DNA of 64,000 bases from Pseudomonadota bacterium (GCA_027486675.1 JAIXOQ010000006.1:9125-73124); one strand, 5' to 3'; counted from the stretch's first letter, positions 26 through 18,404 are shown. Notes: a model not told the origin generated them from the letters alone. Program-made: numbers and translations.

Positions 26-430
26 ATGACCCAAGGTCGACCAGTACCAGCAAGTGACTGGGTATTTGAATTGCGTGTCCATAGCGGCAACTCAGGAACG
101 CCAACGCCGATAAATTTTAATCTGATTAACCTATTTGCGGATCTAGGCACAAATCCACCGGGCACCATACAGCGGACATATATGGTGTATGAGAAATCCA
201 ATCTATGGGATGATTGGAATTGTTTTGAAAACTTCGGCAACGGAAACCAAAAATATTTCAACGGCTTCTGGCGCCACACAAGCTCGATACCATCACCTTC
301 GGTCGCACATCAGTGTATCTCCGCAGCACCGCTTCCAATCCAAGTTCCATTTTTCCCTCCGGCTGGCTTTAAATATTGGATTCGCACAATCCCTACCGGA
401 CAATGTTATCCGAATAGCAGTCCGATTTGA
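26..430 (+). CDS. hypothetical protein; the reading frame is open to the window start, so the gene may be 5'-truncated
   Basis: ORF track; no stop codon in frame between position 2 and the ATG at 26; no recognisable motif. Confidence 0.3.
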   Translation: MTQGRPVPASDWVFELRVHSGNSGTPTPINFNLINLFADLGTNPPGTIQRTYMVYEKSNLWDDWNCFENFGNGNQKYFNGFWRHTSSIPSPSVAHQCISAAPLPIQVPFFPPAGFKYWIRTIPTGQCYPNSSPI

Positions 431-525
431 TCCCTGTCTGTCTGGACTCGCTCGACAGTAGTTGTGAAAAGGGAGGGGCTGTGGGGGTGTGCCTTTTTGG
501 CCGTTTACCGTACAGTTAAGGACTC

Positions 526-1440: not shown

Positions 1441-1477
1441 ATTTGACCGTAGACTGAGTGCTAATGGATTGGAGTTG

Positions 1478-1507
1478 ACTCCATTTTACTCATGAGTAAA
1501 ATGGAGT
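1478..1507. promoter_or_regulatory. 30-bp perfect palindrome (ACTCCATTTTACTCA|TGAGTAAAATGGAGT) directly upstream of the AAA+ ATPase start; candidate operator or ribF terminator hairpin
   Basis: read directly: the right arm is the exact reverse complement of the left; the imperfect outer extension GGAGTTGACTCC...GGAGTTGTGTCC adds further symmetry. Confidence 0.4.
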
Positions 1508-1508
1508 T

Positions 1509-2645
1509 GTGTCCAAAATGCTCATGCGTTATCTCTCGGCGCCCATTCAGGCAGACCTTCAGAAAAAAATGGTCTTTTTAGGTGGGCCTAGGCAAGTGGG
1601 GAAGACTACGCTCGCACAAGGGTTGATTCATGATTTCTACGACGGCCATCCGGCTTACCTGAATTGGGACAGTGGCCCTGACCGAAAAAAGATCAAAAAC
1701 AGGGAGTGGCCAAACGCAGAACAGCTGATTGTCTTAGATGAAGTCCATAAGGCAAAGACTTGGCGAAACATGGTCAAGGGGTTCTACGATACCTTAAAAA
1801 ATACGCATTCATTTCTGATTACGGGGTCAGCCCGATTGGATCATTTTCGCAAAGGAGGCGATTCCCTTCTTGGGCGCTACCACTACTATCGGCTGCATCC
1901 TTACTCGGTAGCTGAGCTGGGTTACAAGAAGGATTGCTTAAAAAACCTCATGAACTTTGGTGGTTTTCCGGAGCCATATACCGAGGCAGATCCACGGAAT
2001 TTACGACGTTGGCACAATCAGAGGTTAGATCGGCTGATTCGGACGGATCTGAGAGATTGGGAAGATGTAAAGGACATGGAAAAAATTTTCGCTCTTGCGG
2101 AGGAACTGCCCAATCGCGTGGGATCACCTCTGTCTATTGCATCTCTTGCGCGCGATATCGAAGCAGATTTTAAGACGATCAAACGGTGGCTTGGGATCTT
2201 GTCCTCACTTTATTACTCCTTTTCAATCCCGCCTTTTGGGTCAGCGAAGATTCGAGCTGTAAAAAAAGAGCAGAAGCTCTATTTGTGGGACTGGAGCCAG
2301 GTTGAAAGCCCTGGAATTCGATTTGAAAACCTAGTTGCATCCCACCTGCTGAAGTACTGTCACTACCAGGAAGATGTGGAAGGACATCGCATGGAGCTTC
2401 GTTACTTGCGGGACACAGACAAGCGGGAGATTGACTTTGTGGTTCTTAAGAATAAAAAACCGGTCTTTGCGGTTGAATGTAAACACGGTGGGTCATCCGT
2501 ATCCCCTCATTTGTTTTACTTTCGGGATCGAACCGCGATACCTCGGTTTTACCAAGTGCATCTAGGTACTCAGTCTAGGCAAGTAGACGATCAGATATCA
2601 GTGATGCCATTTGAGGCCTTTTCCAAGGAGGTCGGCCTGCAGTAG
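1509..2645 (+). CDS. AAA+ ATPase with a C-terminal PD-(D/E)XK-like domain (DUF4143/COG1373-type)
   Basis: Walker A GGPRQVGKTT; DEVH Walker B; C-terminal REIDFVV...AVECK matches the D...ExK nuclease-fold signature. Confidence 0.75.
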   Translation: MSKMLMRYLSAPIQADLQKKMVFLGGPRQVGKTTLAQGLIHDFYDGHPAYLNWDSGPDRKKIKNREWPNAEQLIVLDEVHKAKTWRNMVKGFYDTLKNTHSFLITGSARLDHFRKGGDSLLGRYHYYRLHPYSVAELGYKKDCLKNLMNFGGFPEPYTEADPRNLRRWHNQRLDRLIRTDLRDWEDVKDMEKIFALAEELPNRVGSPLSIASLARDIEADFKTIKRWLGILSSLYYSFSIPPFGSAKIRAVKKEQKLYLWDWSQVESPGIRFENLVASHLLKYCHYQEDVEGHRMELRYLRDTDKREIDFVVLKNKKPVFAVECKHGGSSVSPHLFYFRDRTAIPRFYQVHLGTQSRQVDDQISVMPFEAFSKEVGLQ

Positions 2646-2679
2646 ACAACACTCCGGAAATGGCGTACAATATCGGAGT

Positions 2680-3864
2680 ATGCTCCGAAGACACTTTAAC
2701 CCCTCAAAAACACAGAGCTTTTTCCTCTTTGGCCCCCGGGGTACTGGTAAGTCAACCCTACTGAGGTCGCTCTTTTTAGATGCGCCAGCCACTCTCTGGA
2801 TCGACCTACTGACCGAAGCAGATGAAGACCGGTATGGGCGGCATCCGGATCAGCTCTCAGAGGTGCTTGCCACCGATCGCTACCGGACTGTTGTCATTGA
2901 TGAGATTCAAAAGGCGCCCAAGTTGCTCGATATCGTTCATCTGGAAATTGAAAAGAGAAAAACACGATTTGCCCTCACGGGTTCGAGTGCGAGGAAGCTT
3001 CGCCGCGCAGGGGCAAACCTGCTTGCCGGACGAGCGATCTCTTACAGTCTGGCGCCTTTGACGCACTTGGAACTCGGGAATCAGTTTGACTTAGATACTG
3101 CGCTTCGGTTTGGCACCTTACCTTCATGTGTTTCATTTTCAAACGAAGAGGAGGTCGGACTCTATCTTCGCTCTTATGTGAAGTCCTATTTGAAAGAAGA
3201 GATCGTGGCAGAGCAGATCGTTCGAAATGTGCGGCCCTTTCAAGATTTCTTAGAAGTTGCCGCCCAAACAAATGGTCAGATCGTAAGCTACGCTAAGATC
3301 GCACGTGATGTAGGAGTGGACGATAAGACCATCGCAAACTACTTCGAGATTCTAGTGGATACTTTAGTTGGATTTCAGCTGCCCCCTTTTCATAGGTCCA
3401 TCCGAAAGCGTCAAAAAATGCAGAGCAAATTCTATTTTTTTGATCCGGGGGTAAAGCGCGCACTGGATCGCACGCTTTCGATTCCTCTTCAGCCAAAAAC
3501 CTTTGCTTTTGGAAAGGCTTTTGAGCACTGGGTCATCTTAGAAGTCCATAGGCTGAATGAATACTCCGGCGTTGATTTCCGCTTCAGCTACATGATGACC
3601 AAAGACGATGCTGAAATTGACCTGATCATTGAGCGCCCCGGACAGCCGGACCTTCTCATCGAGATTAAATCCTCTGATTCACCGCAAGAGACAGAAGTGC
3701 GCGGATTGCAGACCTTTCAAAGTGACTGGGACCGACCCTGCGAGGCCCAGATGTGGTCCAATGACCCTGTGGCAAAAAAAATTGGGGATGTCCTTTGTTT
3801 GCATTGGGTGGAGGGGTTACAGAATCTGTTTCCTACTCTCCCCGCCAAATTCCTAACGCCATGA
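2680..3864 (+). CDS. AAA+ ATPase with a C-terminal PD-(D/E)XK-like domain (DUF4143/COG1373-type), paralog of 16466..17599
   Basis: Walker A FGPRGTGKST; IDEIQ Walker B; C-terminal AEIDLII...LIEIK. The start was moved to the internal Met (MLRRHF) so the gene does not overlap the upstream one. Confidence 0.75.
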   Translation: MLRRHFNPSKTQSFFLFGPRGTGKSTLLRSLFLDAPATLWIDLLTEADEDRYGRHPDQLSEVLATDRYRTVVIDEIQKAPKLLDIVHLEIEKRKTRFALTGSSARKLRRAGANLLAGRAISYSLAPLTHLELGNQFDLDTALRFGTLPSCVSFSNEEEVGLYLRSYVKSYLKEEIVAEQIVRNVRPFQDFLEVAAQTNGQIVSYAKIARDVGVDDKTIANYFEILVDTLVGFQLPPFHRSIRKRQKMQSKFYFFDPGVKRALDRTLSIPLQPKTFAFGKAFEHWVILEVHRLNEYSGVDFRFSYMMTKDDAEIDLIIERPGQPDLLIEIKSSDSPQETEVRGLQTFQSDWDRPCEAQMWSNDPVAKKIGDVLCLHWVEGLQNLFPTLPAKFLTP

Positions 3865-3910
3865 TCCCCACGCTGCAAAGATTCGTTAAAGAGCTTTAAC
3901 ATATAAGGTA

Positions 3911-5608
3911 ATGTCCCGAAAGTTAGTCGATCTCTTACAGAAGGAACGTTTGATCACAGATGCGCAAGCTGTGGAAGCAGGTGCGTTGATCAAGGCCGGT
4001 CAAGATCCGATCCGAAATTTTGTCGATAGAAAAATTATCTCAGAATCAAAGCTCGTATACTTCCTATCGCAGAGATTCTCTTTGCCGAGCATTAATTTAT
4101 CTAAATATGAAATTAAGCCGGAGGTGATCGGACTTGTGAACGGGGATTTGGCCCGTAAATTGAACGCCATTCCGATTCAAACTAACAAGGGCATTTTGGT
4201 TGTCGCGATCACTGATCCAACGCACATGGAAGCCTTAGACGACATTCGCTTTGCAACCAAGATGAACGTCGAAGCAGTCCTGATCACCTACAGTGCCTAT
4301 GACCAGGCCATGATGCGGTATTACGGTGGTACCAGCAGCATCACGAAGGCAGTCGAACAATTTCGAAAAGAGAGCAATACCACAGTTGAAATGGTCGTGG
4401 ATCAATCTCTATCCACCATGCATGAGATCGACACGGGCGGTAATAGTGCTGACGAAGCGCCTGTGATTTCAACCGTGAACGGAATTTTAACGGAGTCTTT
4501 ACGTCGCGGTGCCTCAGATATCCACGTTGAACCCTATGAAAAAGACTTCCGTGTGCGCATGCGTATTGATGGAACCTTGCTGGATGTCTTACACATCCCT
4601 ATGGAAATGCGCCGGGCCGTGATTGCGCGTTTTAAAATTATGTCCCGCATGGATATTTCTGAATCCCGTGTGCCGCAAGACGGACGGATAAAAATCAAGG
4701 TAAGCGGACGTGAAGTGGACTTCCGTGTGAATAGTCTGCCGACATTATTTGGCGAAAAAGTCGTGCTTCGGATTTTATCTAAAGGAAACCTTCAGCTTGA
4801 TCTTCAGAAACTAGGATTTGAACCCAAACAGCTCGAACTCTTTCGTAAGGGTGTCACGCAACCGAGCGGCATGGTCTTAGTCACCGGCCCAACGGGTAGC
4901 GGAAAGACCACCACACTCTATTCGGCGCTCATGGAACTGAATCAAATTGGCGACAACTTAAGTACCGTTGAGGACCCAGTCGAATACAACCTAGAAGGCA
5001 TTAATCAGGTGCAGATCAACAAAGACGTGGGGCTTACATTCGCAAGTGCTCTGAGAGCGCTATTGCGGCAAGATCCGGATTCGATCTTGGTCGGGGAAAT
5101 TCGGGATTATGAAACAGGCGAAGTGGCAGTGCAGGCGGCGCTCACCGGACACTTAGTGTTATCGACACTTCACACCAACGATACAGTTGCAACAATCACA
5201 CGTCTTGTGAACATGGGGATCGAACCGTTTCTAGTCACTGCCTCTGTGAACTCCATCATTGCTCAAAGGTTACTCAGGACCTTATGTAAGAAATGTAAAG
5301 TACCTTCAAGTATTCCTACGGAATTCGCAAAGAAGCTTGCTGCCTTAGATTCAAACGGCAAAGTCTTTAGCCCGAAAGGTTGCAGCGAATGTGCTAACAC
5401 GGGCTACAAGGGCCGGGTTGCGGTCTATGAAGTCTTAGATTTTTCGCAGAACCTAAAAGAAATGGTGCTCGCCAATCGCACAGCAATTGAAATCAAGCGA
5501 ACTGCCATTGAAGAAGGAATGCAGACCCTTCGTACTTCAGCTCTTAAAAAAGCATTGGAAGGTCGTGTCAGCGTTGAAGAGGCAGTCTCAATGACTGCGG
5601 AGGATTAG
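3911..5608 (+). CDS. pilB: type IV pilus assembly ATPase PilB (GspE family)
   Basis: N-terminal GspII_E N-domain; Walker A GPTGSGKTTTLYSAL; C-terminal tetracysteine motif (CKKC...CSEC); 565 aa. Confidence 0.9.
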   Translation: MSRKLVDLLQKERLITDAQAVEAGALIKAGQDPIRNFVDRKIISESKLVYFLSQRFSLPSINLSKYEIKPEVIGLVNGDLARKLNAIPIQTNKGILVVAITDPTHMEALDDIRFATKMNVEAVLITYSAYDQAMMRYYGGTSSITKAVEQFRKESNTTVEMVVDQSLSTMHEIDTGGNSADEAPVISTVNGILTESLRRGASDIHVEPYEKDFRVRMRIDGTLLDVLHIPMEMRRAVIARFKIMSRMDISESRVPQDGRIKIKVSGREVDFRVNSLPTLFGEKVVLRILSKGNLQLDLQKLGFEPKQLELFRKGVTQPSGMVLVTGPTGSGKTTTLYSALMELNQIGDNLSTVEDPVEYNLEGINQVQINKDVGLTFASALRALLRQDPDSILVGEIRDYETGEVAVQAALTGHLVLSTLHTNDTVATITRLVNMGIEPFLVTASVNSIIAQRLLRTLCKKCKVPSSIPTEFAKKLAALDSNGKVFSPKGCSECANTGYKGRVAVYEVLDFSQNLKEMVLANRTAIEIKRTAIEEGMQTLRTSALKKALEGRVSVEEAVSMTAED

Positions 5609-5611
5609 GGT

Positions 5612-6697
5612 ATGAGCAGCACACAAGCCACAGTCAGTAAGCTCACCATGGCGCAGCTTTTGCGCGGGATGCTGGATCAAGATGCCTCAGACTTACACCT
5701 TTCTGTGGATAGCCCGCCACAGTACCGGATCCACGGAAAATTACACCGTACGAAGCTCGGTGGTTTAACCGGAGACGCGATCAAGGAGTTGGTGTACGCG
5801 ATATTAACGGACGCTCAGAAGAAGAACTTCGAAGAGGCGCGGGAACTCGATTTTTCCTTTGGTGTGAAAGATACGGCCCGTTTTCGGGGAAACCTCATGT
5901 TTCAAAAGGGGCATATCTCCGCTGTATTTCGTAAGATCCCAAACAAAATTCCAGATCTTGATTTCTTAGGACTTCCCGACGTCTTAAGAAAAGTTGTGAA
6001 AAATCCAAGCGGGTTATTTTTAGTCACTGGACCCACGGGGAGTGGGAAGTCTACTTCTCTTGCCGCCGTCGTTGATTACGTGAATACGAATGAGAACGGC
6101 CATATTCTAACAGTCGAAGACCCAATCGAATTTGTGCACCCGCATAAAAACTGTGTAGTGAACCAACGGGAGGTGGGGTCAGACTCGCTCACGTTCCAAG
6201 ATGCGTTAAAACACGCATTACGTCAGGACCCGGACTACATTCTGGTCGGGGAACTTAGGGACCTTGAAACCATCGAAATGGCGCTCACTGCTGCTGAAAC
6301 TGGACACTTGGTTTTTGCTACACTGCACACCAACGGTGCCGTTGCTACCATCGCCCGTATAGTGAACGTATTTCCGTCCCACCAACAGCCTCAGGTGAGG
6401 CAGCTTCTTGCTTCCGTGTTGCAATGCGTCTTGACCCAGCAGCTGGTTCCAAACAGTGAAGGTGGCGGTCGAGCGCTTGCGCTTGAACTCATGATCCCTA
6501 ATATGGCGATTCGTAACCTGATCCGTGAAGACAAGTTACACCAGATCTACAGTGTTCTTCAAAGCGGACAAGGTGGAAGTGGAATGACCACCATGAATCA
6601 AAGTCTCTTTGCCCACGTGAAGTCAGGTAAGCTAACGAAGGGCGATGCGTTGGGATATTCCACCATCCCTGAAGAACTTCAAAAAATGTTAGGCTAA
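5612..6697 (+). CDS. pilT: twitching-motility retraction ATPase PilT
   Basis: Walker A GPTGSGKSTSLAAVVDY; the HTNGAVATIARIVN-type His box of PilT/PilU; 361 aa; follows pilB with a 3-nt gap. Confidence 0.9.
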   Translation: MSSTQATVSKLTMAQLLRGMLDQDASDLHLSVDSPPQYRIHGKLHRTKLGGLTGDAIKELVYAILTDAQKKNFEEARELDFSFGVKDTARFRGNLMFQKGHISAVFRKIPNKIPDLDFLGLPDVLRKVVKNPSGLFLVTGPTGSGKSTSLAAVVDYVNTNENGHILTVEDPIEFVHPHKNCVVNQREVGSDSLTFQDALKHALRQDPDYILVGELRDLETIEMALTAAETGHLVFATLHTNGAVATIARIVNVFPSHQQPQVRQLLASVLQCVLTQQLVPNSEGGGRALALELMIPNMAIRNLIREDKLHQIYSVLQSGQGGSGMTTMNQSLFAHVKSGKLTKGDALGYSTIPEELQKMLG

Positions 6698-6711
6698 GGC
6701 AGAACTAAAAG

Positions 6712-7938
6712 ATGGCTGACTTTCGTTACATCGCAGCCGACAGAAGCGGCAAAAAAGTGGAAGGCAAGCTCAGCGTCACGAACGAAGGCGAGCTGCGTAT
6801 GGTGCTGCGCGGCCAAGGGCTTAGGCCGCTTAAGATTCAAAAAGCCGGAATCGCAGAGCAAGACATAGGCGCTATGATTTCAGGCGCGCTCGGGATGGGT
6901 AAGGGTGTACCGGCGGATCGTCTGCTTAACTTTTTTAGACAGCTTCAAACGATGATCAATGCCGGCGTGCCGATTCTTCAGGCACTTGAAATTCAGTCGG
7001 AACAAGAGGCTCATCCGCAGCTTAAGAAAATCCTGATCAATTCCAGGGAACGCGTCAAAGAGGGAAAATTCTTGTGGGAGAGTTTCCTCAACTATCCCGA
7101 AGCTTTTGAACGGGTTGTTGTGGCGATGATTCAAGCCGGTGAAACCACCGGGACCTTAGACATCATGTTAAAACGTATCGGTAAATACATGGAAAACTCG
7201 TATCGCCTCAAGCGGCTGATTAAGACTTCCATGTACTATCCGATCGGTGTGCTGTCTCTTTCTTTTGTGATTGTTGCGGGCTTGCTGACTTGGGTTATTC
7301 CTCAGTTTGCATCGATGTTAACGCAGAATGGTCAGGCGCTGCCATGGATCACTTGGTTCATGATGAAGTTGTCCGAGGAGTTTCGGAAAAACTGGTACCT
7401 CATCTTCGCAGGCATGATTGGCGTGGCACTTTTGATCCGCGCCTATGTCAAAACCGAAGGTGGCAGAATTGCAGTTCAGCGTCTGGCGTTAAAGCTTCCA
7501 CTCTTTGGTAGCCTCATTCAAAAAACGGGTGTCGCACGTTTTTGTCGCACGATTTCAACACTGCTCAGTTCAGGGGTGCCGGTCTTAGACGCGCTTGATA
7601 TTACCCGTCGCGCTGCGGGATCGATTGTGTTTGAAGAGGCGATCCGGGACATGCGAAAGAGAGTAGAGATGGGGCAGACCTTTGGGACGGCCATTTCGTC
7701 GCATCCGATTTTCCCACGCATGGTGACCCAGATGATTGTGGTGGGTGAAAGTACCGGAAATTTGGATAAAATGACTGAAAAAGTAGCGGACTTTTACGAA
7801 GAAGAAGTGGAAACCACAGTGACGGGTATGACTAAACTCATCGAACCCTTTTTGATTGTCTTTATCGGTGGAATGATCGCAACCGTGATGATCGCTATGT
7901 ATCTTCCAATCTTCATGGCAGCCGGCGGTGCAACCTGA
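6712..7938 (+). CDS. pilC: type IV pilus inner-membrane platform protein PilC (GspF family)
   Basis: two repeated GspF domains with predicted TM segments; 408 aa; immediately downstream of pilB and pilT. Confidence 0.9.
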   Translation: MADFRYIAADRSGKKVEGKLSVTNEGELRMVLRGQGLRPLKIQKAGIAEQDIGAMISGALGMGKGVPADRLLNFFRQLQTMINAGVPILQALEIQSEQEAHPQLKKILINSRERVKEGKFLWESFLNYPEAFERVVVAMIQAGETTGTLDIMLKRIGKYMENSYRLKRLIKTSMYYPIGVLSLSFVIVAGLLTWVIPQFASMLTQNGQALPWITWFMMKLSEEFRKNWYLIFAGMIGVALLIRAYVKTEGGRIAVQRLALKLPLFGSLIQKTGVARFCRTISTLLSSGVPVLDALDITRRAAGSIVFEEAIRDMRKRVEMGQTFGTAISSHPIFPRMVTQMIVVGESTGNLDKMTEKVADFYEEEVETTVTGMTKLIEPFLIVFIGGMIATVMIAMYLPIFMAAGGAT

Positions 7939-7991
7939 GCCAGCCAAAACTTTCTCGTCCCATCTTAGGGGATTCTGAACCGGTCACGACC

Positions 7992-8879
7992 ATGGTGAAA
8001 CTCATAGAACGGGTCGCGCCTTCACTCACCAATGTCCTGGTCTTAGGTGAAAGTGGAACGGGCAAAGAGTTAGTCGCCCGAGCATTGCATGAACTGAGTC
8101 CCGCTTCTTCCCACGCTTTTATCGCGGTCAACTGTGGGGCCATCCCAGAAACCCTCATTGAGAGCGAGCTTTTCGGACACAAGAAGGGATCATTCACAGG
8201 TGCTGTTGCTGATAAGCCAGGGCTCTTTGAAGCAGCAGACGGTGGCACGCTTTTCTTAGATGAAATTGGGGAGCTTCCGCTTTCCATGCAGGTGAAGTTG
8301 CTCCGTGCACTTCAGGATCGATCGGTGAGGCGCGTTGGGGAGAACCGCGACGTCAAAGTGACTGCTCGCATTGTTGCTGCTACAAACAGAGATTTAGAAG
8401 AAGGTGTGCGGCGCGGTACATTCCGCGAAGATCTGTATTTTAGGTTGAATGTTATTCAAATTGAGACCCCCCCACTTCGGGCACGCGGCACTGATATTGA
8501 GGCGCTTGCGCAGATCTTTTTAGATCGCATGGGAAAAAAGTTATCGCGGAAGTTTGAAGGATTTACCGCAGAGGCTCTCAATGTTTTGCGCACTCATCGC
8601 TGGCCCGGAAACATCCGTGAATTAGAAAACGTGGTGGAGCGCGCCGCAACTTTAGAAACTGAGGCTTGGATCACGCCTCTCACGTTCCCGCCCGAGGTGG
8701 TGAAGGCTGCGGCCCAGTCGGGAAAAGAAGTGGGCGTGCTGACTTTGAAGGCAGACTTTTCTTTAGGGCAGGTGGATCTCTCGGCCGTGATGAAGAACGT
8801 GCGTGCGTTCTATGAACGTGAGGCGCTGATCGTGACTTTAGGGGATGAAGTGAAGGCGAAGGTCCTGATTCGGGAGTGA
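7992..8879 (+). CDS. sigma-54-dependent transcriptional activator lacking a receiver domain; the C-terminal HTH looks truncated or degenerate
   Basis: Walker A GESGTGKE 19 aa after the Met; GSFTGA (GAFTGA-type) loop; WPGNIRELEN; an in-frame stop at 7833-7835 inside pilC excludes an N-terminal REC domain; the protein ends ...EREALIVTLGDEVKAKVLIRE without a Fis-type recognition helix. Confidence 0.75.
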   Translation: MVKLIERVAPSLTNVLVLGESGTGKELVARALHELSPASSHAFIAVNCGAIPETLIESELFGHKKGSFTGAVADKPGLFEAADGGTLFLDEIGELPLSMQVKLLRALQDRSVRRVGENRDVKVTARIVAATNRDLEEGVRRGTFREDLYFRLNVIQIETPPLRARGTDIEALAQIFLDRMGKKLSRKFEGFTAEALNVLRTHRWPGNIRELENVVERAATLETEAWITPLTFPPEVVKAAAQSGKEVGVLTLKADFSLGQVDLSAVMKNVRAFYEREALIVTLGDEVKAKVLIRE

Positions 8880-8895
8880 GGTTTCATAGGGATGG

Positions 8896-9405
8896 TTATG
8901 CCTCCATCAGCTCTTCAAGAAAAAACTGAGTTTTTGCCGGAATCTTTGCCTTTGGAAAGTACCCTTCGATCAATTTAAAAACAACTGAAGCATCCTTGAT
9001 CTGAAGGTGTCGAATGAGAAATTGCACGTCATCCTTGTCGTGGCTATCCCAACGAGCGCTGAGGCACTTCATGGCCAGCATGTATCTGGGTTCCGGCGCC
9101 CAAACTCTAAGATGCGAGAGCTCGAGAACGGATTCTTTTTGGAACTCACCTTGGATGAACACCTTTGCAGCATCATTCAGCCAGTCGGGTGCAAGCTGAT
9201 GCGCTTCTCCTATTTCTGCAACAAACTTTCTGATCAATGCAGTGGGCGCAAAAATCGCATCCACATCTTTGGTCGCGTCCCTGGCTTGGTAGACTAAACA
9301 CATCACGGCACCGCCTACGATGCCGACCTCGCCTCGATCCTGATTTTGCCGGAGTTTTTCGTTGAGCTCAAAAAACAGATCTTTGATTTGCGTCGCTTTT
9401 AGCAT
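8896..9405 (-). CDS. nucleotidyltransferase of the AbiEii / DUF1814-like fold (short form); putative toxin
   Basis: GIVGGAVMCLVYQARDATKDVDAIF matches the GG[TA]A..L.Y...R.[ST].D[LV]D NTase motif of AbiEii-family toxins; 169 aa. Confidence 0.5.
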   Translation of the reverse strand: MLKATQIKDLFFELNEKLRQNQDRGEVGIVGGAVMCLVYQARDATKDVDAIFAPTALIRKFVAEIGEAHQLAPDWLNDAAKVFIQGEFQKESVLELSHLRVWAPEPRYMLAMKCLSARWDSHDKDDVQFLIRHLQIKDASVVFKLIEGYFPKAKIPAKTQFFLEELMEA

Positions 9406-9417
9406 GGGTCTCCATTG

Positions 9418-10005
9418 TTAAGCACGATTTAGGAAGTTTTCTTGCACGAAGATATTATTTCTTCGGTACGCCAATGGCGATTCTAGGATTGCGGTCGCTT
9501 TGAGGGACTCCATTCCGGAAACAAACCAGGGCTTGTCTAAGTAATAACTTTTCCCAGCCCAAGTGGGGGGGTCGATCCCTGCCTCATCACTCAATGAGCA
9601 TGCGATCGAGGCAAGCAATGCCCGAAGTGAATGAGGGAGTTCGGTAGGTGGAGGGAGCAGAAGAAGGAGCGGATTTACGGTTCGTCTAAATTCATCCACA
9701 AGTTCCATGAAGTGAAGTTTCCAACTGTGCTCCCCATCATGGATGGTTTTCGTGGCCACAGCATAAGTGCAGAAGTCCGGATTCAGCTCTTCCTCAGGCA
9801 GAGTTAAAATTGCCACCCTGCGGTCTACTGCCCCAGCAGTTGCGGCCAGACTTTGGATGGAAATGGAGGGAAGGTGTGCCTCGACATGGCGCACAGTCAG
9901 GCGCGAAATCTGGCCGTGGCCGGCCACGGCGGATTCCGTGAGGCGTCTATCGTTCCTCACTCTCTTGAGTGCGTCCCACCACAAGGGCGTTATAATAGAC
10001 TTCAT
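9418..10005 (-). CDS. hypothetical protein encoded 12 nt upstream of the NTase gene; candidate cognate partner or antitoxin (AbiEi-sized); the start is uncertain
   Basis: same strand as the NTase and tightly spaced; 195 aa; the N-terminal coding region contains the GTGGCCGGCCAC palindrome (encoding AVAGHG), so the true start may be the internal Met at about 9708. Confidence 0.35.
   Translation of the reverse strand: MKSIITPLWWDALKRVRNDRRLTESAVAGHGQISRLTVRHVEAHLPSISIQSLAATAGAVDRRVAILTLPEEELNPDFCTYAVATKTIHDGEHSWKLHFMELVDEFRRTVNPLLLLLPPPTELPHSLRALLASIACSLSDEAGIDPPTWAGKSYYLDKPWFVSGMESLKATAILESPLAYRRNNIFVQENFLNRA
9914..9932. repeat. REP-like palindromic element CCGTGGCCGGCCACGGCGG (core GTGGCCGGCCAC)
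   Basis: read directly: the 12-bp core is a perfect palindrome; two more copies are at 10157-10178 and 11496-11510. Confidence 0.5.
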
Positions 10006-10156
10006 ATGTATATTATAACATGCAATTATAGCTTAGCAATAGAAGTGGGCTCAGGCCCCCCGGGATGCTTTTTGATGCGCATACGCTCATTTCACCGCGA
10101 AAAACGGGCACTAGTGCAGCAGAAGTCATGGTTGGCCGGGAGGCAGGAAATCCGTG

Positions 10157-10178
10157 CCGCCGTGGCCGGCCGCGGCGG
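10157..10178. repeat. REP-like element, imperfect copy (CCGCCGTGGCCGGCCGCGGCGG)
   Basis: direct repeat of the 9914 element (GCCGTGGCCGGCC[A/G]CGGCGG[A/C]TTC), 243 bp downstream, in the intergenic AT-rich fic leader. Confidence 0.5.
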
Positions 10179-10270
10179 CTTCATTTGCAGACTTTTTTCC
10201 GGACATAAATTGCCCATTCATGCACCATTTTTATCTTAAAATATTGATAATGAAGGCATAAAATCTAACT

Positions 10271-11491
10271 GTGCAGGACAAGTTGCCGGACATTTTAGAG
10301 CCCATAGACAGGTCAGAATTTGTCTCACTCATGGAGCCTATGCTCATCGCAGAGGGCTCTCATCACCGCCATGAACTCACGGAACTCGCCCTGGAGTTAG
10401 TGGCTCGGTCGAGTGGGTTCTCGCGCTCCCTCCCTGAGGGGTTGTGCGCCAGTCTCGCAGACTTGGTGAGGTCGATGAATTGTTACTACAGCAATCTGAT
10501 CGAAGGACACAATACGCATCCGGTCGATATCGATCGGGCTCTGAAGCAGCAGTATGACAGCGATCCTGGCCGTCGGAGCTTGCAGAAAGAGGCCTTGGCC
10601 CACATCTCAGTCCAAAAGTGGATTGATGAGGGGGGACTTAAGGGACGGGTCTTCTTTGTTGAAAGTATTCAGGAAGTGCATCGCCGATTTTGCGACTTAT
10701 TACCCGAAGAGCTGCTGCAAGTAGAAAAGAAAATGACGGGCGAGCGTTTGCAGGTCATCGGTGGGGAGTTTCGACAGCAAGATGTGCAGGTTGGCCTGCA
10801 CGTGCCGGTGAGTCCTGGATCCGTACCGCGATTCCTGGCTCGGTATCAGGAGGTCTATTCTGGGCTTGGAAAGGCTGCATCCATTGTGGCGGCCGCAGCA
10901 GCGCACCATCGGCTGCTTTGGATACATCCATTCCTAGATGGAAATGGGCGTGTCGCTAGGTTGATTTCGCACGCAGGTTTACTGGAATGCTTAGACACCC
11001 GTGGTCTTTGGTCAGTAGCGCGTGGGCTGGCCAGGAATGTAACCGAGTATAAAAATCATTTGGCACTCTGTGATTTGGTGAGGCGAAATGACCTGGATGG
11101 CCGGGGAAATTTAAGCGAAGAGGAGTTAGCAGCATTCACACGTTTTTTCCTAAAAACGTGCCTCGATCAGGTGAATTTTATGGCTGAGCTCATGAAGCCA
11201 GAGCGCTTGCGTGCCAGGATTCAGCTTTGGACTGAAGAGGAAATCAGGCTTAAGAATCTGCCCCATCACGCAGGTCGGGTCATGGATGCGCTGCTGTACC
11301 GTGGTGAGGTGCCTCGAAACGAAGTGGCTGAAATCTTAGGCGTAGGCGAGCGCCATGCCCGGCGTACAATGCAGACCCTGATCGAGCGGGATATTGTTCA
11401 AGTGTCTGGCGCCCGTGATCCTTATCGCCTTGTTTTTTCGGCTGCCCATGCTGCTCGTTGGCTGCCCGGGCTTTTTCCAGATGTGGGATAG
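10271..11491 (+). CDS. fic: Fic/Doc family protein (class II: intramolecular inhibitory helix; C-terminal wHTH-like region)
   Basis: canonical Fic motif HPFLDGNGRVAR; N-terminal inhibitory motif S-N-L-I-E-G fits (S/T)xxxE(G/N); GTG start (an alternative ATG lies 60 nt downstream); 406 aa. Confidence 0.85.
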   Translation: MQDKLPDILEPIDRSEFVSLMEPMLIAEGSHHRHELTELALELVARSSGFSRSLPEGLCASLADLVRSMNCYYSNLIEGHNTHPVDIDRALKQQYDSDPGRRSLQKEALAHISVQKWIDEGGLKGRVFFVESIQEVHRRFCDLLPEELLQVEKKMTGERLQVIGGEFRQQDVQVGLHVPVSPGSVPRFLARYQEVYSGLGKAASIVAAAAAHHRLLWIHPFLDGNGRVARLISHAGLLECLDTRGLWSVARGLARNVTEYKNHLALCDLVRRNDLDGRGNLSEEELAAFTRFFLKTCLDQVNFMAELMKPERLRARIQLWTEEEIRLKNLPHHAGRVMDALLYRGEVPRNEVAEILGVGERHARRTMQTLIERDIVQVSGARDPYRLVFSAAHAARWLPGLFPDVG

Positions 11492-11495
11492 GGTT

Positions 11496-11510
11496 CGTGG
11501 CCGGCCACGG
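11496..11510. repeat. REP-like palindromic element TCGTGGCCGGCCACGG, third copy, just 3' of fic
   Basis: read directly. Confidence 0.5.
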
Positions 11511-11514
11511 GAAA

Positions 11515-11550
11515 TAAAAAACCCCCGGCAAGGAGACCCTGCCGGGGGTT
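11515..11550. terminator. bidirectional Rho-independent terminator between fic (+) and pilA (-)
   Basis: 9-bp stem CCCCCGGCA/TGCCGGGGG with a 9-nt loop, flanked by an A6 run on the plus strand (a T-run for pilA) and TT on the other side. Confidence 0.6.
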
Positions 11551-11571
11551 ATGAAGATTTTAAGTAGTCTG

Positions 11572-12180
11572 TTATTGCGTATTGCAGGCTGTCCCGATCA
11601 ACGTTCCTGCACTCACTGAACCGACAACGTAGTTCTGGTTGGCACCAGCGGCCCCGGCGGCGACAGCACCTGATACTAGACACATGAACTGACCAGCTCC
11701 AACAGTGCCCGCGGCGAAGTAACCAACTGATGCAACGGGCGCGGCGGTGGGTGCTGCTGCTGCCTGCCAGTTGTTAGCCGGGGTTGACGCAGTAACAGTG
11801 CCGACAGCTGTTCCCCTTGCTACCGCTGCTGTAGCAACAGGATTTATGCTATTTGCAAAGTAGTCGGTGCAGCCCGCGACTGCAGCGGCGTTATAGTTTG
11901 ATCCTACAGAGAAAAATCTCTGTCCTTCAGCAGCCGAGTAGCCCATCTCGCCCAAGCACATGCTGTATGTGCCTCCAGATGTAGCGGAAAAGGCCTGGGA
12001 GACGGCCCCAATCGCACCCAGTGCTGATCTTCCTTCTGCGCCCCGCGCACGCGCCTGAAAGTTTCTATATTGCGGAATTGCAATAGCAGCCAAAATTCCG
12101 ATGATAGCAACGACCACCATCAATTCGACCAGTGTAAAACCCCGTTCGTTTCTCAATGCTTTCAAATTCCCCATAGTCAT
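11572..12180 (-). CDS. pilA: type IVa major pilin PilA
   Basis: class III signal peptide [14 protein letters not shown]|[24 protein letters not shown] (Gly-1, Phe+1, Glu+5); Gly/Ala-rich C-terminal domain; 202 aa. Confidence 0.9.
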
Positions 12181-13007: not shown

Positions 13008-13895
13008 ATGGGGAAGCAAGAAAACGAAGTTCAAAATTCAGGCACCGGCATCAACACACCTGCCGTGATCGGGCAGAAAGTAACTTTTGATGTCTTGGTT
13101 GGATTCCTCCAAAGAAAGAAAACCGTCCTGCACGGCATTGACTTCACAGTCGCACCCCATCGCATCACAGCACTGGTGGGCCCCAACGGTGCGGGTAAGA
13201 CAACGCTGTTTCATCAGATCTTAGGTTTTAAAATTCCAACATCAGGTTCTGTCCATGTCTATGGCGTGCCAGCAAGTGATCCATCCTCACGTCTTGCCAT
13301 AGGTTTTGTGCCGGAACGGCCGTATCTCCCAGCGAAAGAAACTCCCCGTGGATTTTTGTCGCTCTGCATGCGCCTCAGCGGAATGCCGGCTAGGATCGAG
13401 CGCATTGAAGAACTCCTTTTACGTGTGGGTCTAAGTGGCGCGATCGACCAACGCACGGAGAGTTTTTCTAAAGGAATGCTTCAGCGTCTGTTGATTGCGC
13501 AGGCACTGGTGCATGACCCAAAACTTCTTTTGCTCGATGAACCCATGAGCGGTCTTGATCCCGATGGACGCATCGAAGTGCGCAACATCATCCGAGAGCT
13601 AAAAAATGCAGGCAAAACGATCCTCTTCACCACGCACGTCGTGGAGGACATTGAATGGCTTGCTGATGATTTGCTTCTCATTCAAGAAGGCCGTTTGACT
13701 TTCAGTGGTCCCGCACTTGATTTCTTAGCCAAACACCCTGCCTCTTATGAAGTGATGTTTGAGGATCAAGAACTTCTTCAGTATCCAGGCATAGCAGATC
13801 TATCGGGCGCCTTAGCCAAACAATCAGAACACCAAAAGAAACCGCTCTTGATCAAGCAGCGCCGCAAAGGAATAGAGGAGATGTACCGCAAATGA
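13008..13895 (+). CDS. ABC transporter ATP-binding protein (ABC-2 type)
   Basis: Walker A GPNGAGKTT; signature SKGMLQRL; Walker B LLLLDEP; 295 aa. Confidence 0.85.
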   Translation: MGKQENEVQNSGTGINTPAVIGQKVTFDVLVGFLQRKKTVLHGIDFTVAPHRITALVGPNGAGKTTLFHQILGFKIPTSGSVHVYGVPASDPSSRLAIGFVPERPYLPAKETPRGFLSLCMRLSGMPARIERIEELLLRVGLSGAIDQRTESFSKGMLQRLLIAQALVHDPKLLLLDEPMSGLDPDGRIEVRNIIRELKNAGKTILFTTHVVEDIEWLADDLLLIQEGRLTFSGPALDFLAKHPASYEVMFEDQELLQYPGIADLSGALAKQSEHQKKPLLIKQRRKGIEEMYRK

Positions 13896-14656
13896 TCCGC
13901 ACATTCCGGCAGGGTTTTGCAATCTTAGGATTCACGCTGCACGGCCTTGTCCGCGAACGCATCCTGTACAACGTCTTTTTCGTAGCCCTTGGACTTCTTG
14001 CGATCGGTTATTTAGCTTCAAAACTTGTTTATGGCCGCCAGGACCGCGTGATCTTGGACATCGGTGCTGCGGCGATTGAGTTGTGTTTAGTTTTTGTTGC
14101 AAGCGTCTTAGGTTCCCGCCTGATCCCAGCAGAAGTAGAATCCCGCTTAGCCTATTTGATTTTGGCGCGCCCCGTGCACCGGGCGACTTATTTGTTTGGC
14201 CGCACTTTAGGCCTTTGCGCACTGCTTACGCTTAACGCGTTTTTGCTATTTGCGGTTCTTGTGGCTTCTGTCGCGGTGATCGGTCGGTTACCTGAATGGG
14301 TTTTCTTAGAAGGCGCAATTTTAGTCTCTGTTCATGTCGCCTGGATTGCGGCGTTTACGATTTGGTTGTCCACGATGGTCTCTTCTGCGGTGGCAGTCAT
14401 GTCCACATGGGGACTGTACTTCATTAGCCAGAACATCCACCTTCTGCGGGGACTGAAAGATGGTCCGCCGCCGGTTGTTGCAGAAACCCTGACCCGCATC
14501 CTTCCTCAAGGGGCACCCTTCGCTTTGGAGTCCAGGCTTTCTTATGGCGTGGCGCTGCCGCTCCCCGAATTCCTAACTACGATTGCCTACGGGCTTTTGT
14601 GGGTCGGTGTGTTCTCATTGCTTGCGCTGTGGCGCTTTGAACGGAAGAGTTTGTAG
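13892..14656 (+). CDS. ABC-2 type transporter permease
   Basis: overlaps the ATPase stop by 4 nt; about 6 hydrophobic helices. Confidence 0.6.
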   Translation: MIRTFRQGFAILGFTLHGLVRERILYNVFFVALGLLAIGYLASKLVYGRQDRVILDIGAAAIELCLVFVASVLGSRLIPAEVESRLAYLILARPVHRATYLFGRTLGLCALLTLNAFLLFAVLVASVAVIGRLPEWVFLEGAILVSVHVAWIAAFTIWLSTMVSSAVAVMSTWGLYFISQNIHLLRGLKDGPPPVVAETLTRILPQGAPFALESRLSYGVALPLPEFLTTIAYGLLWVGVFSLLALWRFERKSL

Positions 14657-15697
14657 CTGTTGTTTTGGAGATAGTCCCAGGTCTAATGCTGCTTTTAAAT
14701 TGTGCGTCTGACAGAGGTGGCGGAGGTTTTTGAGGGTTGTCGTTCCACCGCAGGCAAGTGGAGTGATGTGATCGACTTGCAAGTGTGCCCGCGAAGGGCA
14801 ACGGGCCTTTGTCAGTGGCGAAATGTATTCACATTGACCGTTCGATCTTGCAAAAATCTTACGTTTAAATTGGAGGGGGATGAATCGTGAGGTGGAGGAT
14901 GCTTGTGGCTGTGGGGAACTCTTCGCTGTGGGCATCACCCCGTCCTGACGGGATTTTTGGGACTGCCCCGGATTCTGGTTATCTTCTGCCGTCCGAACCA
15001 ACTCCGAAATAGCCCGCTGCGACTCCACCTTTCCGAGGCTTCGCTCTTTTTTTTCGATCAGTGTTTTTAGGGCTTCCGTGAAAATATCTGCATTGGAATC
15101 TGCCCAGATCAATTCCCTGGCACGGTTGAGTAGCTTCATCCCATCTTCATCTAAGAAAAGTTTCACTTCCGTATGTGTGGCTGTCGCAACCCGGGTAGTT
15201 TCTTTCAGGCGTGGCGCTTCCGGTGCGGAGGATCGAGATAACAGGATTTTTTCTGTTTCTCTTTTGGACTTTCCTGCCACTGCAGTGAGGAGGTCGTTCT
15301 GTTGGCTACCACTCAGCTCATTTCCTAAAGCTTTTTCTTCCTTTATGAATCTCTGAACCTGGGTGGCACCTGTCAGAGTTAGGTCACCTGTTTCAATCAT
15401 GTGTTTTGCTATTTCATTCCGCCTTGCAAGTCGCATGGCAGCGATGCGTTCGTAGGCGGAGGATTCAGAATACCCAAGTTCCTTCCGCACATACTCAAAC
15501 AGACTTGGGTAAGAAAGTAATGCATAGGCTTTTCTTCGATCGATCTCCTCAAGGTGCGCGACTAATGTCGCTGTTGCGCGCTGCTCGACTCGGGAGATTG
15601 CAAATGTCATATGCAAGAGTTCAAGGTCATTGAGTGGAAACGATGCTGTTTCATTGGGAATTCTGGATGTTCTCTGATTCATCATTTTAGAAATCAT
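14615..15697 (-). CDS. HNH endonuclease domain protein with a DUF222-like N-terminal region (13E12-repeat-like family)
   Basis: C-terminal CEYISPLTKARCPSRAHLQVDHITPLACGGTTTLKNLRHLCQTHN (HNH: D-H...N...H with a Cys pair); homologous along its full length to 59910..60926; start trimmed to an internal Met by alignment with the paralog (the track ORF extends to 15799). Confidence 0.7.
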   Translation of the reverse strand: MISKMMNQRTSRIPNETASFPLNDLELLHMTFAISRVEQRATATLVAHLEEIDRRKAYALLSYPSLFEYVRKELGYSESSAYERIAAMRLARRNEIAKHMIETGDLTLTGATQVQRFIKEEKALGNELSGSQQNDLLTAVAGKSKRETEKILLSRSSAPEAPRLKETTRVATATHTEVKLFLDEDGMKLLNRARELIWADSNADIFTEALKTLIEKKERSLGKVESQRAISELVRTAEDNQNPGQSQKSRQDGVMPTAKSSPQPQASSTSRFIPLQFKRKIFARSNGQCEYISPLTKARCPSRAHLQVDHITPLACGGTTTLKNLRHLCQTHNLKAALDLGLSPKQQLQTLPFKAPQRKQ

Positions 15698-15924
15698 AAC
15701 CCCATGTTTTTGAGGCACCTCGCTGCCCGTGAGAGCACGCCAAACGTCATTTTCGATTTGATATGACCCTTGAAGCGAGATCGTGATTCCTGCGCCCAAT
15801 GCGTTTGTTCAGAAGAGGGTTTTGTTAGACATCTCAACTTCAAAACGGAATGAACTCCGAGACTCGTCAATAGAGAAATTTAAAGGTCATAAAAAAGACT
15901 CACTGAGGGATCCCGATCCAGGCC

Positions 15925-16465: not shown

Positions 16466-17599
16466 ATGTATGCCAGGTCCTTTGTGCAGCCGAATAGCAG
16501 CTTCTTTCTTTTTGGTCCCCGCGGGACCGGGAAAAGCTCGCTCATGCGAAGTCTCTTTCCCGGTGCGCTCCACTTTGACCTTTTGGAGTCGGACTACTAT
16601 CACCAGCTCCTTGCTCGACCCCAGCTTCTCGATGATCTGATCCCAACTACCTATCGGGACTGGGTAGTCTTAGATGAGATTCAAAAGGTGCCGGAGCTTC
16701 TCAATGAGGTGCATCGCCTCATCGAGAGACGAAAACTTAAGTTCGCTTTGACCGGGTCCAGTGCGCGCAGTCTCAGGAAGAAAGGCGTTAATTTACTGGC
16801 TGGCCGCGCTGTCACAAAACATCTATTTCCGCTCACGGTTCAAGAATCCAAGAAAGATTTCGATCTCGCTCATGCTCTAAAATTTGGAATGCTTCCCAGT
16901 GTTTTTGGTAACTCCCATTCTTCCTCTTACCTTGCCTCATACGTCAGAACCTATTTGAAAGAGGAAGTGCAGCAGGAAGGCTTAGTGAGGAACTTGCCAG
17001 CTTTTGCAAGGTTTCTTGAGTCTGCAACTTTTTCTCAAGGCTCTGTGCTCAATATGAGTGAAGTGGCGAGGGATTGTGGCATCCACAGGAAGGTTGTCGC
17101 GGACTACTTTGTTATCCTTGAGGACCTGCTTCTTGCCTGCCGAGTTCCGGTATTCACGAAAAAAGCAAAGCGGGATCTTCTGACTAGCGAGAAATTCTTC
17201 TTTTTTGACAATGGTGTCTATCGAGAGTTGCGACCGCGCGGCCCCTTAGATTCGACGGAGGGGCTCGAAGGGGTCTCGCTCGAGACCTTGCTGTTTCAGG
17301 AAATTCGAGCGTTGAATGAATACCTAGGACTAGGGTACGGGATTTATTACTGGCGCACGAAGCAGAAGCAGGAAATCGACTTCGTGCTTTACGGAAAGGC
17401 CGGACTGATTGCAATCGAAGTGAAGCGTTCCAACAAACCGCGTGGCGATGACCTAGATGCATTGCGGCTTTTTAAGAGTGATTATCCTATGGCCCGATGT
17501 TTTTTGGCATACGGCGGGACGAAGAGGTTTATCCAAAGCGATATAGAGTGTGTTCCTTATGAGGATTTTTTAAGGAAGCTTCCAGAATTCCTCAGATAG
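16466..17599 (+). CDS. AAA+ ATPase with a C-terminal PD-(D/E)XK-like domain (DUF4143/COG1373-type), third copy
   Basis: FFLFGPRGTGKSSLMRSLF; LDEIQK; ALTGSSARSL; C-terminal QEIDFVL...IAIEVK; clearly paralogous to 2680..3864. Confidence 0.75.
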   Translation: MYARSFVQPNSSFFLFGPRGTGKSSLMRSLFPGALHFDLLESDYYHQLLARPQLLDDLIPTTYRDWVVLDEIQKVPELLNEVHRLIERRKLKFALTGSSARSLRKKGVNLLAGRAVTKHLFPLTVQESKKDFDLAHALKFGMLPSVFGNSHSSSYLASYVRTYLKEEVQQEGLVRNLPAFARFLESATFSQGSVLNMSEVARDCGIHRKVVADYFVILEDLLLACRVPVFTKKAKRDLLTSEKFFFFDNGVYRELRPRGPLDSTEGLEGVSLETLLFQEIRALNEYLGLGYGIYYWRTKQKQEIDFVLYGKAGLIAIEVKRSNKPRGDDLDALRLFKSDYPMARCFLAYGGTKRFIQSDIECVPYEDFLRKLPEFLR

Positions 17600-17618: not shown

Positions 17619-18404
17619 GTGCATCCCATCTACACACAGATCCTGATCACACTGCTGGGCCTCATCGTGGGCAGCTTCTTAAATGTTGTGATTCATCGCT
17701 TGCCTCGCGACGAATCCGTCGTGAAACCTGCATCCCGTTGCCCGAACTGCGCGCGCTCGATCCGTTGGTACGAAAACATCCCGCTCCTCAGTTTCGCAGC
17801 CCTTCGCGCAAAGTGCCCCGGATGCAAAACCAAGATCTCTTACCGCTACCCCCTTGTAGAGGCACTCACTGGCGTCCTCTTCTTCGCTTGTTTTCGCGGC
17901 ACCATCGACATCGAGCTCTTCCGCAATCTCTTCTTCATCGCTTCGGGTGTTGCGATCACCTTCATCGATCTGGACCACCGCATCATCCCCGACGAACTGT
18001 CCTTAGGCGGCTGGGCGATTGGCCTGATCAGCGCCCCGTGGGCTGCAGATCACAGCTTTACCGAGCTTCTGATCGCTTCCGTCGTCGGATTTGGAGTGTT
18101 CTTAGGTTTCGCCATGCTTTATGAAAAACTCACGGGCCGGGTAGGCATCGGCGGTGGGGACATCAAATACATGGGTACGCTCGGCGCGTTCCTAGGCTTA
18201 AGCGGGCTTTGGGCTGCAATCTTGGTCGCGTCCGTTGTGGGGAGCGTGATTGGCATTCTTTACGCGACTCTGTCTAAGCCTGCCGAAGGCGCGCAAAATG
18301 AAGGAGTGATGAAAGCCTCTTTGCCCTTTGGTCCTTTTTTAGTCTTAGGTGGTTTTTCAGAAATCTTCTTTGAGGTGTCACAGTGGCTGATTTTGAAACC
18401 GTAG
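17619..18404 (+). CDS. pilD: prepilin peptidase / N-methyltransferase PilD (A24 family)
   Basis: N-terminal LIVGSFLNVVIHRLP plus the tetracysteine CPNC...CPGC; the catalytic Asp-containing IDLDHRIIPDEL; multiple TM helices. Confidence 0.85.
   Translation: MHPIYTQILITLLGLIVGSFLNVVIHRLPRDESVVKPASRCPNCARSIRWYENIPLLSFAALRAKCPGCKTKISYRYPLVEALTGVLFFACFRGTIDIELFRNLFFIASGVAITFIDLDHRIIPDELSLGGWAIGLISAPWAADHSFTELLIASVVGFGVFLGFAMLYEKLTGRVGIGGGDIKYMGTLGAFLGLSGLWAAILVASVVGSVIGILYATLSKPAEGAQNEGVMKASLPFGPFLVLGGFSEIFFEVSQWLILKP

Follow-up and report, generated by a model that had tools for sequence, protein, structure and literature searches.

The locus described here raises the question of whether three accessory genes within a type IV pilus gene cluster form one toxin or defence system, and whether their arrival cost the host its pilus regulators. 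The genes lie at positions 8880–11571 of a 64,000-nucleotide stretch of DNA from a Pseudomonadota bacterium (GCA_027486675.1 JAIXOQ010000006.1:9125-73124), referred to below as the window, between a gene for a sigma-54 activator and the pilin gene pilA. They encode a nucleotidyltransferase (NTase), a partner protein, and a Fic protein. The original prediction held that these genes constitute a single module of a kind not yet described, bracketed by GC-rich palindromes, and that its insertion had displaced or eroded the pilS/pilR regulator genes. The underlying observation is largely real, and the segment is an ordinary accessory islet; the more exciting claim, a novel three-gene system that wrecked pilus regulators, does not hold. 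The islet probably consists of two independent, self-contained modules, namely a toxin–antitoxin (TA)-like operon of partner and NTase, and a solitary, self-inhibited class II Fic protein.

The division into two modules was drawn from the neighborhoods of homologues. In 87 loci recovered via NTase homologues (82 of them non-redundant), the partner adjoins the NTase in 84, whereas the Fic type of the window is absent from all 87 and a Fic gene of any type, as detected by a motif scan, lies within 5 kb in only four of the 82 non-redundant loci (L082, L140, L147, and L159). Because close homologues of the Fic protein are also solitary, the Fic gene was judged to be separate from the pair, and the predicted unity of the three genes was not borne out. 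The features of the segment and its flanks are as follows (amino acids, aa; nucleotides, nt; helix-turn-helix, HTH).

7992–8879 from the called ATG (possible CTG start at 7935), plus strand: sigma-54 activator gene, left flank, assigned by Pfam and by comparison with relatives
8880–8895, no strand: left junction, 16-nt spacer from the sigma-54 gene stop to the NTase stop (sequence, repeat scan, terminator scan)
8896–9405, minus strand: DUF6036 minimal NTase, 169 aa, AbiEii/MenT-like, putative toxin
9418–10005, minus strand: partner protein, 195 aa, putative autorepressor and antitoxin, 12 nt upstream of the NTase gene
9913–9936, no strand: GC-rich palindrome copy 1 (GCCGTGGCCGGCCACGGCGGATTC), within the partner coding sequence
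9989–10019, no strand: inverted repeat GTTATAATATAC-N7-GTCTATTATAAC (minus-strand reading), putative operator
10012–10039, minus strand: predicted sigma-70-like promoter of the partner–NTase operon (TTGCTA, 16 nt, TG, TATAAT; consensus match only)
10159–10182, no strand: GC-rich palindrome copy 2, in the divergent intergenic region
10271–11491, plus strand: class II Fic protein, 406 aa, C-terminal winged-helix region, SoFic-like architecture
11494–11517, no strand: GC-rich palindrome copy 3 (core CGTGGCCGGCCACG), right junction, between the Fic stop and the pilA terminator
11520–11550, minus strand: pilA intrinsic terminator, 14-bp stem followed by TTTTTTATTT
11572–12180, minus strand: type IV pilin gene pilA, right flank (Pfam N_methyl, 1.2e-10)

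Insertion between the sigma-54 activator gene and pilA

Relatives of the locus were collected by a PilC scan with one genome per species. The closest ones by PilC were Oligoflexia/Bdellovibrionales metagenome-assembled genomes (52–56% identity). Eight relatives (L002, L003, and L005–L010) had the order ribF-pilB-pilT-pilC-sigma-54 gene-pilA (minus strand) in common, followed by three pilG/H/I-like genes; in L007, the pilA/pilGHI-like block was inverted compared to the other close relatives. The distance from the stop codon of the sigma-54 gene to that of pilA was 124, 75, 72, 55, 51, and 11 nt in L002, L005, L006, L008, L009, and L010, respectively. It was 47 nt in L017 and 75 nt in L014, both more distant, versus 2,692 nt in the window. 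Homologues of the NTase, the partner, and the Fic protein were absent from the loci of the eight relatives. As the spacer is this short in relatives, positions 8880–11571 are an accessory-gene insertion in the convergent spacer between the sigma-54 gene and pilA. The original prediction was correct in this respect, with six close and two more distant relatives displaying an empty site of 11–124 nt without islet genes. Its gene calls were likewise reproduced, including the three open reading frames (ORFs), the 12-nt gap between the NTase and partner genes, the 16-nt interval from the end of the sigma-54 gene to the stop codon of the NTase, and the pilA terminator abutting the third palindrome copy. 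The pilin gene also matched the NCBIfam model typeIV_PilA_Myxo (3.8e-18), with a score under the family cut-off.

In other lineages the same slot holds different cargo: a Phd-like/PIN toxin–antitoxin pair in L007 (7928–8582), an AAA_14/DUF4143 ATPase gene in L012 (3182–4399), two large ORFs (501 and 811 aa) without Pfam match in L003 (6283–10271), and, after the sigma-54 gene of L015, an HNH protein homologous to the one encoded at 14615–15799 of the window. Therefore, the spacer between the sigma-54 gene and pilA is a recurrent landing site for accessory genes in this lineage.

The activator next to the islet consists of the AAA+ domain only (Pfam Sigma54_activat, 1.4e-69, and AAA_lid_14); neither a receiver domain (REC) nor HTH_8 was detected by Pfam, which agrees with the HTH loss noted previously. 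From the called ATG at 7992 the protein comprises 295 aa. The reading frame stays open upstream of this codon, where the conserved RPILG is present, and the conserved RPILGDSEPVTT lies 5′ of the first ATG, GTG, or TTG (window 7935–7994). The sole in-frame upstream start candidate is a CTG (7935–7937) that overlaps the TGA stop codon of pilC (7936–7938; CTGA) and would yield a protein of 314 aa, as in relatives. In the eight closest relatives, all free of the islet, the activator is 314–322 aa long, starts just before the RPILG segment, and lacks a receiver. The tail common to these relatives (FY.REAL.YTKN.E.A.KLL.K-stop) is found in the window as FYEREALIVTLGDEVKAKVLIRE-stop and is truncated in both. 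The activators of the inner clade (L002, L003, and L005–L010) are devoid of the second half of HTH_8, whereas the more distant L012 and L014–L017 keep the full HTH_8, with the receiver domain absent. Since islet-free relatives carry the identical truncation, the loss of the HTH, as read from these sequences, predates the islet, and the short activator is an ancestral trait of the clade. The insertion did not erode the regulator, nor did it displace pilS/pilR, as islet-free relatives hold the receiver-less activator at this place.

The order pilB-pilT-pilC-(sigma-54 activator)-pilA-(ABC transporter genes)-pilD resembles that of the Myxococcus-type pil cluster (pilB-T-C-S-R-A-G-H-I-D). Unlike that cluster, the clade described here is devoid of pilS, and its activator lacks a receiver and a complete HTH, with or without the islet. 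In comparison to PilR, an NtrC-type protein with a receiver, a sigma-54 AAA+ domain, and HTH_8, the window and the eight closest relatives retain only Sigma54_activat and AAA_lid_14. No sigma-54 promoter was found upstream of pilA in the window within two mismatches; the best candidate selected by eye, TGGTCC-N5-TTGT, has three mismatches and is not established.

Other junctions of the pilus cluster also carry additional genes. Two tandem AAA_14/DUF4143 ATPase genes (1509–2645 and 2611–3864) lie between ribF and pilB; as ribF and pilB are directly adjacent in relatives (e.g., L003, L005, and L006), the ATPase genes mark a second accessory insertion. A perfect 30-nt palindrome, ACTCCATTTTACTCATGAGTAAAATGGAGT, the longest perfect one in the window, is located at 1478–1507, directly 5′ of the first of these ATPase genes. 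Farther downstream, the genes for the HNH-domain protein (14615–15799, minus strand) and a third AAA_14/DUF4143 ATPase (16466–17599, plus strand) separate a pilI-like ABC-2 permease gene (13892–14656) from the prepilin peptidase gene pilD (17619–18404), two genes that abut in relatives. An independent assembly of the same genome (L001, Logan contig SRR16126844) matches the window over positions ~1–10072; this contig breaks ~67 nt 5′ of the partner gene, immediately ahead of the region that contains the GC-rich palindromes.

The nucleotidyltransferase and its partner

The 169-aa protein matched the Pfam nucleotidyltransferase family DUF6036 (31.3 bits compared to a cut-off of 23.6, E 2.2e-7), as did 31 of 31 aligned homologues. 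A total of 2,206 homologues was retrieved, many of them 59–72% identical. Residues G31, G32, and R42 are invariant, and D47 and D49 are kept in at least 90% of the sequences; motifs I and II, hG[GS]x(~15)DhD with an arginine inside motif II, are present with a spacing of 14 residues. Toward the C-terminus, K113-CLSA-R118 and D120-SH-D123/D123-KD-D126 are conserved, with a spacing that differs from AbiEii motifs III (KLxAaxxR) and IV (+DxxD); their correspondence to the latter is tentative. The AbiEii motifs were defined and found to be required for toxicity by Dy et al., who described the arginine within motif II as specific to AbiEii (PMC3985639). The 169-aa protein carries what reads as a pol-beta signature with the extra arginine and the K/R and acidic motifs. 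In two homologues (P0034 and P0089), the second catalytic aspartate is replaced by asparagine (DVD to EVN or DVN) in an otherwise well conserved sequence, and these proteins may be inactive.

A connection to AbiEii was found on plasmid pTCL (Curtobacterium), which encodes a distant 277-aa relative that passes both the AbiEii (31.7 bits, cut-off 22.5) and the DUF6036 model and thereby bridges the two families; the same partner domain is encoded upstream of it. As this longer NTase has its own extension, passes AbiEii, and is still preceded by the partner domain, the idea that the partner domain represents the missing C-terminal half of AbiEii was disfavored. At the sequence level, no match of the window NTase to any PDB chain was obtained, neither with the single sequence nor with a profile. 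Among structural matches covering most of the protein, the closest are the toxins MenT1, MenT4, and TglT, and not MntA. The assignment as an AbiEii/MenT-like nucleotidyltransferase is hence borne out by DUF6036, the motifs, and the structural matches; in Pfam, DUF6036 and Fic were passed, and the AbiEii model itself was unmatched. Neither the NTase nor the partner matched PHROG or PADLOC profiles, and a tblastn search of 50,697 phage records returned no match to the NTase and hence no sign of phage origin.

The partner protein is composed of an N-terminal XRE-type HTH (residues ~10–60) and a conserved C-terminal domain (~80–195). The complete 195-aa protein had no Pfam match; its HTH most closely resembles those of the antitoxins HigA2 and HipB, and the structure model reached a pLDDT (predicted local distance difference test) of 92.9. 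The C-terminal domain ends in a near-invariant PWFVSGMESLKA..LLESP..FRRNNIFV..NFL.RA, with W160, F161, K169, R181, N183, N184, N190, and R194 as near-invariant tail residues. For this domain, the searches gave chance-level Pfam matches only (six members searched), GyrA at E ~1 only in a profile search of PDB sequences, and no PDB fold match with Foldseek. The domain family comprises 565 representative clusters in two length classes (~190 and ~115 aa), and the domain is always C-terminal. The mean column identity is 67% for the NTase and 45% for the partner.

Within the 87 loci, the partner is located upstream of the NTase in 60; 58 of these proteins carry the HTH, and those of L145 and L163 match the C-terminal domain alone. 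The spacing between the two genes is mostly −4 to +7 nt, with frequent overlaps, and many partner homologues are encoded on the same contig as an NTase homologue. Next to the closest NTase homologue (70% identity), the partner is adjacent and Fic is absent. DUF6036 homologues occur on 20 Mycobacterium plasmids. On the M. intracellulare plasmid pFLAC0070_2 (L175, 2434–3513), one ORF of 359 aa joins the C-terminal domain of the partner to the NTase and lies 1.7 kb downstream of a ParD/ParE pair; such a fusion argues strongly for physical cooperation of the two. The distribution of the cassette is patchy and mobile: it is found on plasmids beside ParDE and relaxase genes and is co-located with HicB, AAA_14, and Fic genes.

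The predicted promoter of the operon is sigma-70-like and has 10 of 12 consensus matches. The inverted repeat at 9989–10019, in which 11 of 12 arm positions pair, covers the −10 box and the ATG of the partner gene. Of 32 homologous loci examined, about a dozen have comparable palindromes of the TATAAT type (e.g., TGACATATTATAATGTGTCA) ~15–60 nt 5′ of the partner gene. It is natural to infer that the HTH partner represses its own promoter via the inverted repeat at 9989–10019.

The pair resembles AbiE in its bicistronic operon of a two-domain DNA-binding protein followed by a pol-beta-superfamily NTase, in the hGG...R...DxD motif and, more tentatively, the K...R and acidic DxxD motifs (as defined in PMC3985639), in the inverted repeat at the promoter, and in its occurrence on plasmids. 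It differs in the length of the NTase (169 aa compared to ~290 aa for AbiEii), in the Pfam family (DUF6036, not AbiEii), and in the partner, which combines an XRE HTH with an unrelated C-terminal domain, whereas AbiEi belongs to the COG5340 winged-helix type; for the present NTase, toxicity and GTP binding are putative. The MenAT systems of M. tuberculosis (MenT1, MenT3, and MenT4) likewise have a minimal NTase with an antitoxin gene upstream, but the antitoxin is unrelated, no sequence match to a PDB chain was found, and tRNA nucleotidylation would be an extension by analogy only. In a full-text literature search, no paper on DUF6036 turned up, and the work on NTase toxins that was returned concerned AbiE, MenT, and HepT only. 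Given that the motifs are conserved, including the arginine of motif II, that the NTase is the more conserved member of the pair, and that the HTH of the partner is near HigA2 and HipB, the NTase is most likely the toxin and the partner its autorepressor and antitoxin, in a manner similar to AbiE and MenAT.

The Fic gene and the GC-rich palindromes

The third protein of the islet matched Pfam Fic (59.2 bits, 7.5e-16). The active-site motif HPFx[D/E]GNGRxxR is matched by HPFLDGNGRVAR at residues 219–230, and the inhibitory motif [ST]xxxE[GN] by SNLIEG at residues 74–79, N-terminal to the active site. The assignment to class II was thereby confirmed. Its match to the PADLOC SoFic profile is nearly full-length (8.6e-26, residues 40–381, profile positions 32–343 of 361), and the sequence matches in the PDB were FICD and SoFic. 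SoFic is a class II Fic that serves as a single-gene anti-phage system, and a similar protective role of the window protein through AMPylation would be putative. With the NCBIfam SoFic equivalog model, however, only 19.5 bits were obtained compared to a cut-off of 550; therefore, the protein represents a different subfamily with the same architecture, i.e., the canonical Fic motif, the SxxxEG helix, the C-terminal winged-helix region, and a stand-alone gene, and is not an orthologue of SoFic. For E. coli Sofic, an AS1-like downstream gene has been reported (PMC12249575); here, the 80 nt between the stop codons of the Fic gene and pilA leave no room for a small gene of this kind.

More than 8,000 homologues of the Fic protein were found, many of them ~410 aa long and 63–67% identical, across phyla. 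The close homologues are solitary and lie beside HipBA pairs, a transposase gene, another Fic gene, or an Mrr-nSTAND gene. The Fic genes in the vicinity of the partner–NTase cassette belong to other subfamilies and differ in their distance from the pair, which they either precede or follow; that of L082 resembles the window Fic at the active-site motif alone. Three homologues of the window Fic (L169, L173, and L174; positions 3975–4000 in each) have (C/T)ATGATAT(A/T)(A/T)A in common 10–20 nt 5′ of the start codon. A looser version, ATTGATAAT, is present at 10236–10270 of the window, and the element is possibly a promoter or operator conserved in this Fic family.

Within the 64 kb, the palindrome GTGGCCGGCCAC is confined to three sites spread over 1.6 kb, namely 9916 and 11497 and, with a single mismatch, 10162. 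Only 0.11 copies would be expected, and none of 100 shuffles gave three or more. Copy 1 encodes V-A-G-H within the partner. Copy 2 precedes the Fic start codon by 109 nt, matches copy 1 at 92% identity over 24 nt, and also scores as a terminator-like hairpin. As these two copies have 22 of 24 nt in common and GAAATC a few bases upstream, the comparison points to a duplication rather than to convergence. The three palindromes of the original prediction are real but do not enclose the islet genes as a set. Copy 1 is part of the partner gene, only Fic is flanked by copies 2 and 3, and at the left junction (8880–8895) neither a palindrome nor a terminator was found in repeat and terminator scans. 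The palindrome is specific to this genome; it is missing from the 176 other loci collected as well as from partner homologues and from the regions beside three Fic homologues. The copies could be binding sites, perhaps for the winged-helix region of Fic, a recombination scar around Fic, or a small hairpin element.

Proposed mechanism, rival readings, and implications

In the reading that we consider probable, the first module (10039 to 8896, minus strand) would be a bicistronic TA-like operon with the HTH partner first. The partner would repress its own promoter through the TATAAT-centered inverted repeat, and its C-terminal domain would hold the DUF6036 NTase encoded downstream in check. Once freed, e.g., when the partner is lost, the NTase would attach nucleotides to a target in the cell, by analogy to MenT possibly the 3′ ends of tRNA, and thereby cause growth arrest, with addiction or abortive infection as the outcome. 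The second module (10271–11491) would be a solitary SoFic-like AMP-transferase kept inactive by its own N-terminal SxxxEG helix.

Several observations weigh against this reading. The composition of the islet genes gives no independent sign of foreign origin, as the three genes do not deviate and lie within ~2 standard deviations of the 54 window ORFs in GC content, GC content at third codon positions (GC3), and codon-usage likelihood, a result that speaks neither for nor against such an origin. Pfam AbiEii (PF08843) was unmatched by all 31 close members of the NTase family at E ≤ 1. In 24 of the 87 loci, the NTase comes first and is followed by an HTH-less protein of ~115 aa that corresponds to the C-terminal domain of the partner only, an order known from MNT-HEPN systems, in which the NTase serves as antitoxin. 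The last ~45 residues of the partner are almost invariant, a pattern that suits a fast-evolving antitoxin less well than an enzyme or effector. Around the cassette, Fic genes are in excess, with four in 0.46 Mb compared to none in 1.17 Mb of PilC-anchored control loci. Finally, the 24-nt palindrome is common to the partner coding sequence and both Fic flanks, so that some local coupling is possible. The excess of Fic near the cassette is more in keeping with two families that both reside in islands than with an operon.

The gene order and the invariant tail would be explained if the roles were reversed in the manner of type VII systems, with the NTase acting as an antitoxin that nucleotidylylates an effector, the C-terminal domain of the partner, as MntA does with HepT. 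The fusion of the partner domain to the NTase on Mycobacterium plasmids is compatible with this reading as well, and the combination of a small NTase with a helical protein of ~115 aa resembles HEPN/MNT. We nevertheless regard a reversal as unlikely. The partner contains neither the Rx4-6H motif of HEPN nor an invariant histidine, it gave no HEPN match by Pfam, PDB sequence, or Foldseek, and its C-terminal domain matches no toxin family or structure. Furthermore, the partner of the window is encoded first and bears an HTH, as is usual for antitoxins, the structural neighbors of the NTase are the toxins named above instead of MntA, and the NTase is the better conserved member of the pair.

Considerably less probable is a function outside TA and defence, in which an XRE-regulated housekeeping or resistance NTase (e.g., an ANT-like enzyme acting on small molecules) would lie beside an unrelated regulatory Fic. 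The strong conservation of the NTase across phyla and the lack of PADLOC and PHROG matches for the pair are in line with such a function. The tight bicistronic coupling with often overlapping genes, the patchy and mobile distribution on plasmids beside ParDE and relaxase genes, and the co-location with HicB, AAA_14, and Fic genes argue otherwise, as do the AbiEii-type motifs of the NTase and the partner domain that is conserved and, in some lineages, fused to it.

The weakest alternative, one integrated NTase–partner–Fic system with the palindromes as common regulatory or recombination sites, could draw on the Fic excess, on the immediately adjacent Fic genes on the same strand in L082 and L159, and on the repeat that joins the partner coding sequence to the Fic promoter region and recurs after the Fic stop codon, but is highly improbable given that 78 of the 82 cassette loci, including that of the closest NTase homologue, are free of Fic, that the few nearby Fic genes belong to other subfamilies on either side of the pair, that close homologues of the window Fic are solitary, that the palindrome is missing from the other fetched loci, and that a class II Fic has its own inhibitory helix.

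With the partner/NTase operon and the separate Fic gene as the preferred reading, the locus bears on both the host lineage and the protein families involved. The spacer next to pilA and other junctions of the pilus cluster repeatedly take up accessory genes in this lineage. In addition, a PilR-like activator without receiver and DNA-binding domain beside pilA in a predatory-type clade raises the question of how pilin is controlled. The partner/DUF6036 pair is common, conserved, and mobile, and is a candidate for a new branch of AbiE/MenAT NTase toxins with a new partner domain. We tentatively propose that the XRE-HTH/C-terminal-domain protein and the DUF6036 NTase constitute a new and widespread NTase-based TA or abortive-infection family, with a partner domain without known relative, at least 2,200 NTase homologues and 565 partner-domain clusters, which is plasmid-borne, sometimes fused, and tends to reside in accessory islands together with Fic.

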